Origin: Botryllus schlosseri
Lineage: Eukaryota
NCBI GenBank assembly: GCA_051294905.1
Contig: CM119372.1
Location: forward strand, 31,126,001 to 31,190,000
DNA: 64,000 nucleotides
Reading direction: 5' to 3'
A model generated the notes under the pieces. The model saw nothing but the letters and a program-made list of their open reading frames with translations. It ran no database searches and had not been told where the DNA came from. A program made the translations under genes and the position numbers. Numbering within the stretch: the stretch's first letter is position 1; each line of letters opens with the position of its first letter. Positions 727-18,372 of the stretch are shown piece after piece.

Positions 727-1941
727 TTATTCTGGAATACAGGCATCAATCAATAGTCGTAACCCGACAAATATTGACACAACTGTGAACACACGAACAG
801 CGAGATTTTTGTCTCGATAGAGAGGTCTACAGAGAGCGAGTTGTCGGCCGATTCGTAACTTCTCCTCTAATGCAAGGTGACGTTTCTCCAATTCTTCACG
901 TGTTAGCGGGTTTGCTATCGTCGGCCGATCAAGATTCGGATGATCACATTCGAGCGAGCGTGCGAATTCAAGACCTTTGATTCTCGATACGTACTCGCAT
1001 CCAGGAAACCACTTTGCATGCTCCGTCCATGCCTCGTCGTTATCTTGCCAATGTTGAAGGGAACCATTACAATAGAAACATTTTGTTTTATCAGGTAATC
1101 CTGTATAATAGAACCCGGCCTTTGATAATTCCTCTGCACCAATTTTACCTGTCCAACCTTCGAATGTTGCTAGCCTTCGTTCATATGAAACCATGTCCGG
1201 ACTCAAGGGTTTCGAGCAGGGTAGTAATTGTGACAGATGACGTCGCTCTCTGAGAGAAGGATTCGGTGGTTCAATAGCTGTTTGCTGTATTTTTTTACAG
1301 AGTAATCCATCCAACCACAAACGCTCCCGATCGCTTAGTGGTATGTTACCGGAATATTCACCACGAACAAACTTGCAATGAGGAAAATGTTCCTTGTGAT
1401 AGTCAGAAACATCGCAAGTAGATCTCCAGCCACAAAGCACACCGGAACAGAATACACATTGCGTTCTTTGTTTATCCCCGAGATAGAAAGAACCATGTTT
1501 AGCCAACTCACCGACGAGAAGGGGAGAAGGATACGAGGGCCATTTTTCAAATGTTCTCCGACGGTGCGATTCGCGAAGCAAGTTGGAACATTTCAACAAA
1601 TTCTCATGCTCACGATCAACGATTTTAGCAAACTCAATGGGTTTCACACTTCTAAAGTCCGTAAACAGTCTTTTAAAATGTGATTCATGAATAGGTACGT
1701 TAAGTACGGCTCGACCATCTAACATAGCACAACCATTTGTATGCCAAATCCGAGTATGTTCAATACGATCAAAGGTCCAATCTTCAACGGTGCAAGCACA
1801 ACTGAAACATTTCACACGACCATCCGTCAAATAAAATCCACTAGCTGCCAAATCCGACAATCTGATGGGCGAATTGAATCGACAACCAGCAAAAGTAGCG
1901 AGTCTATAGAACTCGTAGTTATGTAGTCCCGACTCAACCAT
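727..1941 (-). CDS. Inhibitor of apoptosis (IAP) with three BIR domains and no intact RING
   Basis: Three RLxTF...GFY...C-x2-C...H-x6-C repeats (KCFSC..WHTNGC; QCVFC..HKEHFPHC; KCFYC..EHAKWFPGC). First ATG is at 1941; AATAAA overlaps the stop. Confidence 0.93.
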   Translation of the reverse strand: MVESGLHNYEFYRLATFAGCRFNSPIRLSDLAASGFYLTDGRVKCFSCACTVEDWTFDRIEHTRIWHTNGCAMLDGRAVLNVPIHESHFKRLFTDFRSVKPIEFAKIVDREHENLLKCSNLLRESHRRRTFEKWPSYPSPLLVGELAKHGSFYLGDKQRTQCVFCSGVLCGWRSTCDVSDYHKEHFPHCKFVRGEYSGNIPLSDRERLWLDGLLCKKIQQTAIEPPNPSLRERRHLSQLLPCSKPLSPDMVSYERRLATFEGWTGKIGAEELSKAGFYYTGLPDKTKCFYCNGSLQHWQDNDEAWTEHAKWFPGCEYVSRIKGLEFARSLECDHPNLDRPTIANPLTREELEKRHLALEEKLRIGRQLALCRPLYRDKNLAVRVFTVVSIFVGLRLLIDACIPE

Positions 1942-1982
1942 AGTTAAGACTAGCGAATGGAGCAATATTTCAGAAACTCGTC

Positions 1983-2708
1983 TTATATCTTGAGCCAGGC
2001 GTAACCTTTTTTTCTATGGAGATTATCATCATTATCCAACTTGAAACTGCTAGATATGGAGCATTTCTGTCTTGGCTCTAATTCTCGTAATCTGTTCATA
2101 AGATCCGAAAATTTTACCTCTACCGTAAACTCTCGTAACACAGTTCTGAAATTTCGCGCAAAGGTTGTACCGGATGGATAGCACCAACTGAGCTGATCAT
2201 GACTAACGGCACTTATCAGAATCGTTTTTGATTTCACTGTACGTTTATGTTTCAAAACTTCCGAAGTACCATCCGCATGCAAACGGAATTTCAAGTCGCC
2301 GGAATCACCAGAGTGACATTGAGCAAACATCAACAGGTTTTTTGTATCTCTTCGAAACAATTTCAATAGGGAACACATATCATCATCAAGTAACGGCCTA
2401 TCATAGAACACAAAACCAGAATCATTCGATTCGGGATCATTCTCCGTTGTACTATTTTTCACCGTAAATCCATGACCGACAAAATATATGAAATTTCTTT
2501 TCGCGCCACTAGAAGCCATATTTTTTATCGCTGCAGTGAAGTTCTCAAGGGTAGCACTTTCTTCTTCTAGGACTTTGATGTCAGAATCATCAAATTTGAA
2601 TTGTTCATGTAAAATTTCTCTAATGATTTCGATATCCTTGAGAGTTCCCTCATTCTTAACATAATTGACAGTACCGCGATAGCATAGTGACACGATTAAC
2701 GCATTCAT
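1983..2708 (-). CDS. Metacaspase-like peptidase (C14 family)
   Basis: Motifs ALIVSLCY..G...D, catalytic YFVGHG, LLDDDM and catalytic AQCHSG..DL follow the type I metacaspase order. TATA-like element at ~2741-2749. Confidence 0.85.
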   Translation of the reverse strand: MNALIVSLCYRGTVNYVKNEGTLKDIEIIREILHEQFKFDDSDIKVLEEESATLENFTAAIKNMASSGAKRNFIYFVGHGFTVKNSTTENDPESNDSGFVFYDRPLLDDDMCSLLKLFRRDTKNLLMFAQCHSGDSGDLKFRLHADGTSEVLKHKRTVKSKTILISAVSHDQLSWCYPSGTTFARNFRTVLREFTVEVKFSDLMNRLRELEPRQKCSISSSFKLDNDDNLHRKKGYAWLKI

Positions 2709-2753
2709 GATGATTGAACAAACAACCTATTCTCGTATCTTATATATAGTTTA

Positions 2754-3092
2754 TTACCGCATATTTCGCAAGCGATCCATAATACATTCTCCAATTTTAC
2801 GTCGACGATAAATAACAAGATCATCTCTTACAATACGAACGACATTACGCCTAGACATTACATCGACATACATACAATCTTTCGGGAAACGAAAAGGTTC
2901 CCAATCACTACCAACGAAAAAAGTAATATCATTCCTATCAGGATAGATTCGTATCCGGAAAGGTGAAAACGAGAGCCTGTAAATTCTAAGCGGATTCGAT
3001 AGCATTATTTTTTCCTCAAATTTCATATAGATCTTTTCTCCATTCGTATGATAACGAATCACAATAAAATTATTTTCCCGCATCCACATCAC
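2754..3092 (-). CDS. Hypothetical protein
   Basis: 112-aa ORF packed co-directionally between the protease and metacaspase genes; no recognisable motif. Confidence 0.55.
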   Translation of the reverse strand: MMWMRENNFIVIRYHTNGEKIYMKFEEKIMLSNPLRIYRLSFSPFRIRIYPDRNDITFFVGSDWEPFRFPKDCMYVDVMSRRNVVRIVRDDLVIYRRRKIGECIMDRLRNMR

Positions 3093-3528
3093 GGATCAAC
3101 TCCTTTACGAAGCGACGCACAATAACGTCGTTATGACGTTTGTCGTCACCGAAATAATTTAAATAACTTTCGGAACTTACTCCGCGTGCTCGTTTTACTA
3201 TATACGATATCACGTGATGACCACAAGAACGCGAACGTTCGTGTTGTAGTTGCTTTATCGAGCACGTGTATTTATCGGGTTCAATAAAAATTACTACCTC
3301 TTGTCGGAGAGGCGGTAATCCGAAACTATCATGAAAATGCGTACCGTCATGATCAGCGTATATACATATCCAATGACTTCCTTTCTTTCGCGCCTCATCA
3401 TAATTGATTACGACGGCATAGGGTAACTCGGGCTTTTTCGGTAGACAATCGATCGGAAAAGTCCCAATGAAAATATGCTTTGTTGCGTCGCAACGACCTA
3501 ACACATAGTCTATTTCGTCTTCGTTCAT
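3070..3528 (-). CDS. Adenain-like capsid maturation cysteine protease
   Basis: GSHWICIY, FHDSFG and LQ...SCGHH supply the His/Asp/Gln/Cys set. Start overlaps the MCP stop (ATGA). Confidence 0.92.
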   Translation of the reverse strand: MNEDEIDYVLGRCDATKHIFIGTFPIDCLPKKPELPYAVVINYDEARKKGSHWICIYADHDGTHFHDSFGLPPLRQEVVIFIEPDKYTCSIKQLQHERSRSCGHHVISYIVKRARGVSSESYLNYFGDDKRHNDVIVRRFVKELIRDVDAGK

Positions 3529-17373: not shown

Positions 17374-17414
17374 TAAATACTTGTAAACTCATTCTATTGA
17401 AATAAAAAAATATA

Positions 17415-17738
17415 TTAATGTATGAGATGCGACGCGTCGTTCATTTCTAGTCTGTAACAATTTTTCATGAATAAGCTGTTTAATTCCACGGCGGTTCCTT
17501 GCTTGATAGTAATACACTTTCCGTTTATGCGGACATCTTCTTCATGAATCTTCATTGATTTTCTTTCGTCTTCGTCACGTATGATCACCCACGTATATCC
17601 TTTACGGCGTTTTATTATGAATTGCCGCTCAAGTTTTATCGTCGCTATGCCCGTTACTATTATACTCTTTGAAGTTTGGTCCATTGTAATACTTGTTGGA
17701 GACTCGAATTTAACATCGTCAATCACTATTCTTCCCAT
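17415..17738 (-). CDS. Hypothetical beta-rich protein
   Basis: 107-aa ATG ORF in the tightly spaced minus-strand cluster. Confidence 0.6.
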   Translation of the reverse strand: MGRIVIDDVKFESPTSITMDQTSKSIIVTGIATIKLERQFIIKRRKGYTWVIIRDEDERKSMKIHEEDVRINGKCITIKQGTAVELNSLFMKNCYRLEMNDASHLIH

Positions 17739-17816
17739 CGTTGCTCAATTTCGTAATGAATGGCTTCGCATCAAATTTGTGACTTAAATAGTCACGTAAA
17801 CTTCTTTGTGAAATAG

Positions 17817-18065
17817 TTATCTTGAGTATAGCAAACTATGTGCCAATTCTTCTAGTTTGTTCATTGTGGCACGACGACCGTTCTTTCGTATCCAGGTCTG
17901 TATCATTTGATAACGCTGCTCTGTTAAGTTGTTTCGATCCATATATTCACATTCTTCAATTTCATTAGCAGATAGTTCAAGTTTTGAGCGAGCAAATCTC
18001 TTCCAGTTCCACGGTTCAATTCGTTCTATTATACTATATGCATCTCGGGACGTGATCTCAGACAT
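17817..18065 (-). CDS. Stand-alone death domain protein
   Basis: WKRFARSKLELSANEIEEC...LTEQRYQMIQTW...GRRATMNKL fits the death-domain consensus (W..FAR.LGL...I; EQ.YQML..W; AT...L). Confidence 0.87.
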   Translation of the reverse strand: MSEITSRDAYSIIERIEPWNWKRFARSKLELSANEIEECEYMDRNNLTEQRYQMIQTWIRKNGRRATMNKLEELAHSLLYSR

Positions 18066-18087
18066 AATGCGTTTGCTTCAATATCTA

Positions 18088-18372
18088 TTAGTAATTAAAT
18101 GTGATATGGTATCGCTTGCTACGCTCTTCCGCTTCTTTATTCCATTCGACTACCAGAGGGCATGAAGAATATATTCTGCTGTGTATGCTCCATACACCGC
18201 ATTCATCGAAAAAACTGGTCAAGTCTTCAAACACACCTTTACATTTATAGCATTTCACATTGTTGCGAATACCAGTATGAAACAATCCACACATCGCTAA
18301 TTTATATACATCAATTTCGAAATTACATTGATACGACTCGAATGACATCAATCTATATCTCAAACTATTCAT
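18088..18372 (-). CDS. Single-BIR protein (divergent)
   Basis: RLMSF...LAMCGLFHTG..NVKCYKC...W.IHSRIYSSCP retains the C2HC zinc ligands. Confidence 0.85.
   Translation of the reverse strand: MNSLRYRLMSFESYQCNFEIDVYKLAMCGLFHTGIRNNVKCYKCKGVFEDLTSFFDECGVWSIHSRIYSSCPLVVEWNKEAEERSKRYHITFNY

Follow-up and report, generated by a model that had tools for sequence, protein, structure and literature searches.

A defective Polinton copy in Botryllus schlosseri, whose lineage probably carries a conserved set of genes acting on host programmed cell death

Polintons are suspected to be viruses, and their dealings with the host cell are little understood. Among DNA viruses, baculoviruses, entomopoxviruses and iridoviruses possess inhibitor of apoptosis proteins (IAPs), virus-borne BIR proteins which are thought to block host apoptosis and which in their classical form consist of two BIR domains and a C-terminal RING. 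Another kind of interference is known from vFLIPs and from the CARD-only proteins ICEBERG, COP and INCA, which are death-fold-only copies of the domain by which an initiator caspase is recruited. We analyzed a stretch of 64,000 nucleotides from the 495-Mb assembly of Botryllus schlosseri (GCA_051294905.1, contig CM119372.1; C2:31126001-31190000), hereafter referred to as the window, which harbors a Polinton/Maverick element. In an initial annotation, five open reading frames (ORFs) of this element had been assigned to programmed cell death. Our data suggest that the element is a defective copy of an adintovirus-like virus-transposon whose lineage, as we consider probable, stably carries genes manipulating the programmed cell death of its host.

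Adintoviruses with homologues of Bcl2 and IAP, as well as gasdermin-like (C-terminal homologue) genes, have been reported by Starrett et al. 2021 (PMC8502044), and an IAP is found among the ORFs of a leafhopper adintovirus in a 2026 preprint (10.64898/2026.07.28.741253). Metacaspases of giant viruses and the caspase of an ascovirus are reviewed in PMC10583209. The accessible text of PMC8502044 does not contain the word "caspase", and "death" occurs in it only within "cell death"; its supplementary figures S1/S2 on accessory genes could name further cargo. No report joining Polintons or Mavericks with a caspase or a death domain (DD) was found in the literature searched. Thus, the notion that the gene combination is new in a Polinton has to be restricted: IAP and Bcl2 homologues are cargo already on record, but the metacaspase, the DD decoy and their combination with BIR genes appear to be unreported, as do the presence of an E2 ubiquitin-conjugating enzyme, the conservation of the genes as a set and their amplification by non-autonomous derivatives.

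The boundaries of the element were determined by fetching the flank of the window and aligning both element ends. It lies in minus orientation, covers 19,195 bp from window position -366 (G000:C2:31125634) to 18828 and is flanked by terminal inverted repeats (TIRs) of 328 bp, the left one (-366..-40) just outside the window, the right one at 18501..18828. The TIR arms are identical at 325 of 328 positions. The termini AGTAGTG...CACTACT represent 5'-AG...CT-3' ends of the Polinton type and are directly abutted on both sides by a perfect 6-bp target site duplication (TSD), CATGAC. At four related elements the 6-bp TSDs TTCAAC, GAAGCT, CAAGGA and AATATT were found. Since TIRs and TSD bound the element, all five cargo genes are situated inside it, including the left-hand pair, for which a location beyond the true left TIR had been considered. 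Between these ends the element encodes a retrovirus-like integrase with a C-terminal chromodomain (6928..7914, minus strand; Pfam rve 4.2e-12, Chromo 9.9e-7), an A32/FtsK-type packaging ATPase (8718..9401, minus strand; Pfam Pox_A32 2.5e-10) and a double jelly-roll major capsid protein of 425 aa (3525..4802, minus strand). The designation as a Polinton given in the initial annotation was corroborated by all these features, and the element is a complete Polinton/Maverick insertion.

Of the five ORFs assigned to cell death, four are intact single ORFs with the Pfam domains that had been named, but the fifth is broken. At the left end, a gene for a RING-less IAP of 404 aa with three BIR domains (727..1941, minus strand; Pfam BIR x3, E 1.5e-42) is followed by that of a compact metacaspase-like C14 protease of 241 aa (1983..2708, minus strand; Pfam Peptidase_C14, E 5e-10). 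The opposite end contains a death-domain-only gene (17817..18065, minus strand; 82 aa; Pfam Death 8.9e-12), hereafter Death, and a gene for a small single-BIR protein of 94 aa (18088..18372, minus strand; Pfam BIR 1.4e-7). The third BIR gene (15858..16481, plus strand, 207 codons) is interrupted by an in-frame TGA at 16176-16178. The ORF 15858-16178 (plus strand) by itself has no Pfam match. Its BIR domain is located in the same frame at about 16155-16349, and the TGA falls on a conserved Trp position. When the stop was read as X, the product of 207 residues matched Pfam BIR with E 2.5e-18, and the orthologue in a sister copy on C11 is an open frame of 206 aa (BIR 1.3e-19). Because the domain is present in the read-through frame and the orthologue is open, we concluded that this gene is real but broken in the window copy. 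The Cys-Cys-His-Cys zinc ligands are visible in the translations of every BIR domain, and Pfam did not reveal a RING in any of the three BIR proteins. A different IAP of 564 aa with three BIR domains and a RING (L031:4181-5875, G000:C10:14576181-14577875) is dispersed through the same genome in at least 13 copies. Its neighbours are an IS1595/Merlin-like DDE transposase and several consecutive ORFs, each about 150 aa long, and another mobile element may be its vehicle.

The window copy was recently integrated. It is now defective because one BIR gene and the gene for a putative family B DNA polymerase (PolB) of the protein-primed type (9340..13268, minus strand) are broken. PolB is divided into three frames, once by a stop codon in frame at 11376-11378 and once by a frameshift located within 10503-10704. 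A copy on C10 belonging to a related family, termed C, has a single frame of 1310 codons spanning all three pieces. The gene was called PolB from its position and from exonuclease and polymerase A/B/C-like motifs spotted by eye in the translation; sequence searches against Pfam and the PDB gave no match. Across the 5' end of PolB (13043..13504), roughly 240 bp are duplicated in tandem, and the C11 copy shares this duplication. As PolB and one BIR gene are broken, the window copy provides no argument for its own activity, and the earlier conclusion that the gene content argues for a real infectious cycle could not be upheld for this copy.

The C11 sister copy shares 95-99% nucleotide identity with the window copy, resides at a different insertion site and keeps the IAP (96% aa identity) and the metacaspase (99%) open. 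Its PolB is broken too, at places other than those in the window copy. Because the breaks sit at different places, the damage in both copies is best explained by post-insertion decay of an intact progenitor. One stretch of the element, window 13967-16981 with a 413-aa ORF, the single-BIR gene and a 161-aa ORF, differs from the C11 copy by a synonymous divergence (dS) of 0.14-0.20, compared with 0.01-0.05 in the rest of the element, and looks like a recombination mosaic.

In the genome, the capsid protein detected two copies of the window lineage and, among the best 99 of 274 matches, three related families: 43 copies of a family F (77-82% identity), 12 of family C (69-71%) and 14 of a family A (64-71%). 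One element per family was examined as sequence, while the other copies were assessed by match coordinates and, for family A, by fetched element ends; Death, BIR and synteny in the further family A copies were taken from match coordinates. The cargo was expected by the initial annotation to be found in other copies if it mattered, and it does recur in the C11 copy and in families A, C and F. The reference element of family A (C2:30486881-30506370; TIR 382 bp, TSD TTCAAC) agrees with the window in its sequence of genes, one by one, at protein identities of 43-73%, with the order, from the Death end, of Death, ORF, BIR, two ORFs, PolB, ATPase, two ORFs and integrase, followed by three ORFs, capsid, protease, ORF and metacaspase. 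The window lineage and this sister family have the cargo layout in common despite a divergence to 59-70% protein identity. In place of the window IAP it has a 113-aa ORF, an E2 (Pfam UQ_con 1.4e-46; L018:4447-4926, minus strand, adjoining the metacaspase) and a 108-aa ORF. The metacaspase was present in each of the 13 additional family A ends retrieved, and the module of the 113-aa ORF and E2 followed it in 12 of them, the exception being the C22 copy, which is truncated behind the metacaspase. With the reference copy included, the metacaspase is open and of full length in 12 of 14 family A copies, and none of the 14 matches is more than about 2.1 kb away from a capsid match. Family C lacks the metacaspase but possesses Death, the ORF and BIR; in 11 of its 12 copies the Death match is found about 13 kb from the capsid match. 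Of the cargo, family F has only the single BIR and the ORF after it, and the F-type BIR accounts for 46 of the 72 BIR matches in the genome. Thus, the single-BIR gene occupies the same position in all four families examined (window lineage, A, C and F), and Death is present in three of the four. A further 26 capsid matches at 33-36% identity (best 99 of 274) reveal at least one more distant Polinton group, near whose capsids no cargo query had a match among the matches listed.

The metacaspase label proposed for the C14 protease was affirmed by its relatives of known structure. A profile of 11 sequences searched against the PDB found yeast Yca1 as the best match (6.7e-15), then plant MC4/MC9; the remaining matches were further metacaspases of fungi and plants and a single bacterial protein, and no animal caspase appeared at E<=1. 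The predicted catalytic dyad, His79 (codon 2472-2474) and Cys131 (codon 2316-2318), is invariant in the 11 sequences. We also considered a derivation of the protease from a host caspase and rejected it, given these relatives and the fact that BLASTP disclosed no similarity (E 5.3) to a caspase of the host with a death domain (DD-caspase), described below. By these comparisons, the protease belongs to the metacaspase class and not to the animal caspases. To our knowledge, metacaspases are lacking in animals. Among 1.84 billion representative proteins there were 5437 matches at 1e-3, only seven clusters of them at E<=1e-30; the closest remote relatives with a name come from protist transcriptomes, and a word-based search added nine unnamed relatives. 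Look-alikes in feature space were compact bacterial and phage caspase-domain proteins, which we regard as a lead only. Within the genome, all 16 matches to the metacaspase belong to the window lineage or to family A. In collections of viral and metagenome contigs, relatives of the metacaspase and of the capsid gave pattern matches only, none of which was confirmed.

Without a prodomain and with its His-Cys dyad intact, the metacaspase is likely to cut substrates of host or viral origin following basic residues. Such an activity could also serve the opposite end, namely to promote or time cell death, with the metacaspase as an executioner or egress factor, or as a protease processing virion or host factors, roles that have been suggested for the ascovirus caspase and the metacaspases of giant viruses, and with the BIR and DD proteins delaying apoptosis until then. 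The invariant dyad, which is under purifying selection, agrees with this explanation, as do the viral caspases and metacaspases described in PMC10583209 and the family A arrangement, in which the metacaspase is paired with E2 and not with the IAP. The element, however, already contains a separate adenain-like candidate (a weak match) for the maturation of virions, and families C and F manage without a metacaspase. We therefore regard a programme that promotes or times death as unlikely, if worth keeping in sight, and a programme that manipulates the death response of the host as the better explanation.

The DD protein is linked to host caspases by its sequence. Its death fold fits the profile of the DD and not those of DED, CARD or PYD, and the best relatives in the PDB were the DDs of TNFR1 (2.4e-8) and RIPK1 (1e-5), besides those of ankyrin, TRADD and FADD. 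When Polinton-type elements are left aside, its closest relative in this genome is the N-terminal domain of a 554-aa protein that combines Death with Peptidase_C14 and is encoded without introns (C8:2402k). An alignment of the window protein with this host DD-caspase begins at the first Met, extends to the end of the domain and shows 68% identity. The host domain shares 53-68% identity with the Polinton DDs, compared with no more than 49% with those of its four host paralogues. Because the alignment runs from the first Met to the domain end, the cargo gene is evidently a prodomain-only copy of the host DD-caspase. A complex prediction for the DD of the host DD-caspase and that of the Polinton gave no verdict (score 0.00) and is not used as evidence. 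The host gene is part of a cluster of five intronless Death plus caspase genes of 516-569 aa at about 2.35-2.40 Mb on C8 (L030:879-2429, L030:4837-6501). A death-domain prodomain on a caspase is an unusual architecture; the nearest named relatives of the host protein are from ascidians, Styela clava (33%) and Clavelina lepadiformis (30%).

According to the mechanism we propose, the element would replicate as linear DNA and express its virion genes while the cargo acts. The 82-aa protein would be a dominant-negative decoy at a death-domain platform that would otherwise recruit and activate the host DD-caspase, following, by analogy, the logic of vFLIPs and CARD-only proteins. The BIR proteins, both the RING-less IAP with its XIAP-BIR3-like third domain and the single-BIR proteins, would bind host caspases or IAP antagonists. 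In this manner, we infer, death signalling may be blocked at the receptor level and the caspase level, as suggested in the initial annotation, during what may be an infectious cycle. Alternatively, the BIR and DD proteins may act outside apoptosis, either in innate immune ubiquitin/NF-kB-type signalling, similar to cIAP/DIAP2 and the DDs of the TNFR1/RIPK1 type, or in survivin-like chromatin or cell-cycle roles aiding tethering or integration. The closest solved DD relatives, TNFR1, RIPK1 and TRADD, indeed also signal to NF-kB, the universal cargo gene is the small single-BIR protein and not a multi-BIR IAP, and an E2 has been added in family A. Such functions are difficult to reconcile with the death domain, whose closest genomic relative is a caspase prodomain, and with the third BIR of the IAP, which is closest to XIAP BIR3 / ML-IAP (E ~1e-25), i.e., to the class binding caspase-9 and Smac. 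A role outside apoptosis thus seems rather improbable to us, and interference with host cell death remains our preferred explanation for these genes as well.

Copies of two cargo genes were found far beyond the elements with capsid genes. The Death query gave 116 matches in the genome, 87 of them at 68-74% identity (11 of these in family C), and according to their coordinates 60 matches form 30 oppositely oriented pairs spaced 5-23 kb apart. With the IAP query about 88 RING-less 3xBIR frames, mostly open, were detected at 49-54% identity, many of them as inverted pairs (best 116 of 402). One Death-type and one IAP-type palindrome (C4:20653816-20670385 and C11:11037944-11053243) were examined as sequence. 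Their arms of 6-7 kb are 99.9% identical and contain no core genes and one Death or one IAP gene each. Their terminal sequences are either of the family F type (AGTAGTGAGGG...) or of the family A type (AGTAGTATATAAATGG...), and the palindromes are flanked by the 6-bp duplications CAAGGA and AATATT. On account of the Polinton-type termini and the 6-bp duplications, they are to be classed as non-autonomous Polinton derivatives, which to judge by the matches have spread about 88 IAP genes (among the matches listed) and 76 death-domain genes through the genome. We speculate that they arose as integrated snap-back defective genomes. The palindromes may be an assembly artefact, but spacers and duplications speak against it.

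The abundance of these genes raises the question of selection at the level of the host. By domestication, the animal would have recruited IAP and DD genes delivered by Polintons, chiefly the approximately 165 palindrome copies, into its own expanded death and immune repertoire. The predominance of open IAP frames, the number of Death copies and the ratio of non-synonymous to synonymous substitution rates (dN/dS) of 0.16 between the IAP copies of two different non-autonomous elements are in line with this idea. The 99.9% identity of the palindrome arms in the two cases examined indicates very recent copies, not old domesticated loci, and the same genes also reside in autonomous elements with capsid genes. 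Domestication is therefore, in our opinion, a very unlikely explanation, and we return to selection on the elements themselves.

The initial annotation left it to further copies whether the cargo evolves neutrally; the comparisons speak against neutrality. Between families, the proportion of synonymous differences (pS) is 0.70-0.85, i.e., saturated, and that of non-synonymous differences (pN) is 0.17-0.39. For the window versus family A, pN and pS were 0.215 and 0.79 for the metacaspase and 0.245 and 0.82 for Death; for comparison, the values of the core genes were 0.194 and 0.83 (capsid) and 0.211 and 0.85 (integrase). Among 13 copies of the family A metacaspase, 17 synonymous and 19 non-synonymous distinct variants were counted on 143 and 595 sites, respectively, corresponding to a variant rate ratio of 0.27 (binomial p 1.5e-4). 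The family A E2 exhibited 17 synonymous and 13 non-synonymous variants (ratio 0.20, p 1.8e-5). The pooled pairwise dN/dS of family A was 0.19 for the metacaspase (78 pairs) and 0.18 for E2 (55 pairs), the pairs being non-independent. Between the window and C11 copies, pooled pN/pS was 0.44 for the cargo (p 8e-4) and 0.32 for the core, with small counts for single genes. These data point to purifying selection on the cargo comparable to that on capsid and integrase. Four raw RNA runs labelled with the same organism, of each of which 6-13% was covered, with no control stretch, gave 28, 0, 4 and 0 reads on window 1-19000, most of them partial; these counts speak neither for nor against expression. 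That the cargo consists of neutral passengers or host genes caught in decaying transposon copies, of no use to the element, would suit the broken genes of the window and sister copies and the scarcity of reads in the covered part of those runs, but is scarcely credible in view of a gene order retained in family A despite saturated synonymous sites, the excess of synonymous variants among copies, the 12 of 14 open family A metacaspases and breaks which, lying at different places in the two window-lineage copies, indicate decay after insertion.

Several observations weigh against a lineage equipped to manipulate host cell death. The window copy itself is defective, with the stop and the frameshift in PolB and the nonsense codon in one BIR gene; in the C11 copy, Death contains a TAG and most of the 94-aa BIR gene is deleted. 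Among autonomous elements, the 3xBIR IAP and the 94-aa BIR occur only in the two-copy window lineage (among the matches listed), and by Pfam the Polinton IAP is devoid of the RING that most viral IAPs carry. Between window and C11, Death shows 0.5 synonymous and 3.5 non-synonymous differences, which are too few to weigh but lean in the unfavourable direction. The search of viral and metagenome contig collections yielded no exogenous relative. Finally, a DD of 80 residues is too short to tell a transfer from host to element from one in the other direction. Taking these points into account, we still hold the manipulation of host cell death by a stably kept set of genes to be the probable explanation.

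A wider scenario can be sketched, which is conceivable but in our view doubtful. In it, a Polinton clade in this marine animal would be, or would recently have been, a true virus with a layered programme against host cell death. It would deploy a decoy for which the prodomain of a host DD-caspase was captured, between one and three BIR proteins, a non-animal metacaspase and, in one family, an E2. The palindromes would be snap-back defective genomes which seeded the roughly 88 IAP and 76 DD-only genes, and the "expanded" IAP and DD families without introns that are reported from marine invertebrates would stem in large part from Polinton cargo, not from duplication by the host. The wider significance of the locus lies in accessory genes that are as conserved as the capsid and all point to one host process. 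They offer host-virus interfaces for study, namely the DD decoy versus the DD-caspase, the BIR proteins versus caspases, and whatever a metacaspase would cleave inside animal cells. Moreover, Polintons and their non-autonomous derivatives, by copying intronless IAP and DD genes, may provide a route for the ballooning of invertebrate cell-death gene families, and the reading of invertebrate "immune gene expansions" would change.

The remaining genes of the element are those of a virion module and of conserved ORFs. For the capsid ORF 45 homologues were found, including "F54H12.2-like" proteins from scallop and damselfly and a limpet protein whose UniRef name is "Major capsid protein". A profile search against the PDB by sequence gave no match. 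The structural model based on an alignment of 38 sequences (pLDDT 85.6) was compared with the PDB by Foldseek and matched the Sputnik capsid protein best (E 1.8e-16, TMq 0.69), with iridovirus, PBCV-1 and mavirus capsids also among the best matches; the Sputnik, PBCV-1 and mavirus matches were all at E 1e-13 to 1e-16. Predicted structures in BFVD that matched the model were adintovirus, adomavirus and MELD-virus proteins. An earlier model from four sequences (pLDDT 44) was discarded and not used in the fold search. The ORF of 152 aa at 3070..3528 (minus strand), without Pfam match, is a probable adenain/Ulp1-like cysteine protease; it shows a weak match to the S273R protease of African swine fever virus (E 0.0057) and is kept in families A and F. 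Three conserved ORFs of the virion module (123, 244 and 274 aa; 4852..6756, minus strand), which are syntenic in families A and F, are candidates for minor (penton) capsid genes and gave no Pfam match.

Likewise without Pfam match are a conserved ORF of 111 aa (2754..3089, minus strand; 49% identity in family A), one of 413 aa upstream of PolB (13967..15208, minus strand) which is kept in families A, C and F, and one of 161 aa (16496..16981, plus strand) which without exception stands behind the single-BIR gene, shows 44-64% identity to its counterparts in families A, C and F and had no usable match in an Atlas search. The ORF of 107 aa at 17415..17738 (minus strand) has a counterpart with 93% identity at the opposite end of family A elements (L018:5093-5419), whereas the other genes shared by the two lineages are 43-73% identical. 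This difference and the location at opposite ends suggest that the 107-aa ORF was recently exchanged between Polinton families. In the interval that separates the left TIR from the IAP gene, window 47-689 comprises an exact 107-bp tandem duplication with a flanking 141-bp inverted repeat, absent from the C11 copy. A tRNA-like look of the TIR was dismissed, since ARAGORN found no tRNA and Rfam none at E<=0.1. Apart from the element, the window contains at 51583-64000 a large nested palindrome that reaches up to the window end, with arms of 3155, 682, 587 and 439 nt, 98-99% identity and 41-bp tandem repeats.

Compared with the classical viral IAPs, the Polinton IAP has three BIR domains and no RING, and the other two BIR genes encode single-BIR proteins of 94 and 207 residues. 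The DD protein resembles vFLIPs and CARD-only proteins in that it apparently copies a caspase prodomain and could compete for the activating platform. Unlike the tandem DEDs of vFLIPs and the CARD of COPs, the Polinton decoy is a DD proper, and the caspase mimicked would be an invertebrate DD-caspase, so that the likeness is one of logic only. With the giant-virus metacaspases and the ascovirus caspase (PMC10583209), the element shares the property of a DNA virus-like entity possessing its own C14 protease with an intact dyad, but it differs from those cases by its animal host, by a 19-kb Polinton as carrier and by a single-domain protein of 241 aa. The closest relationship is to the adintoviruses and Polintons (PMC8502044; 10.64898/2026.07.28.741253), with which the element has in common the occurrence in an animal, the rve integrase, the jelly-roll capsid, the ATPase and an accessory IAP, and apparently also the putative PolB and the candidate adenain-like protease. 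Beyond the adintoviruses described there, a single element may hold as many as three BIR genes together with a DD-only gene and a metacaspase, an E2 is present in a sister family, and the conservation of this cargo and the selection acting on it can be followed across families.

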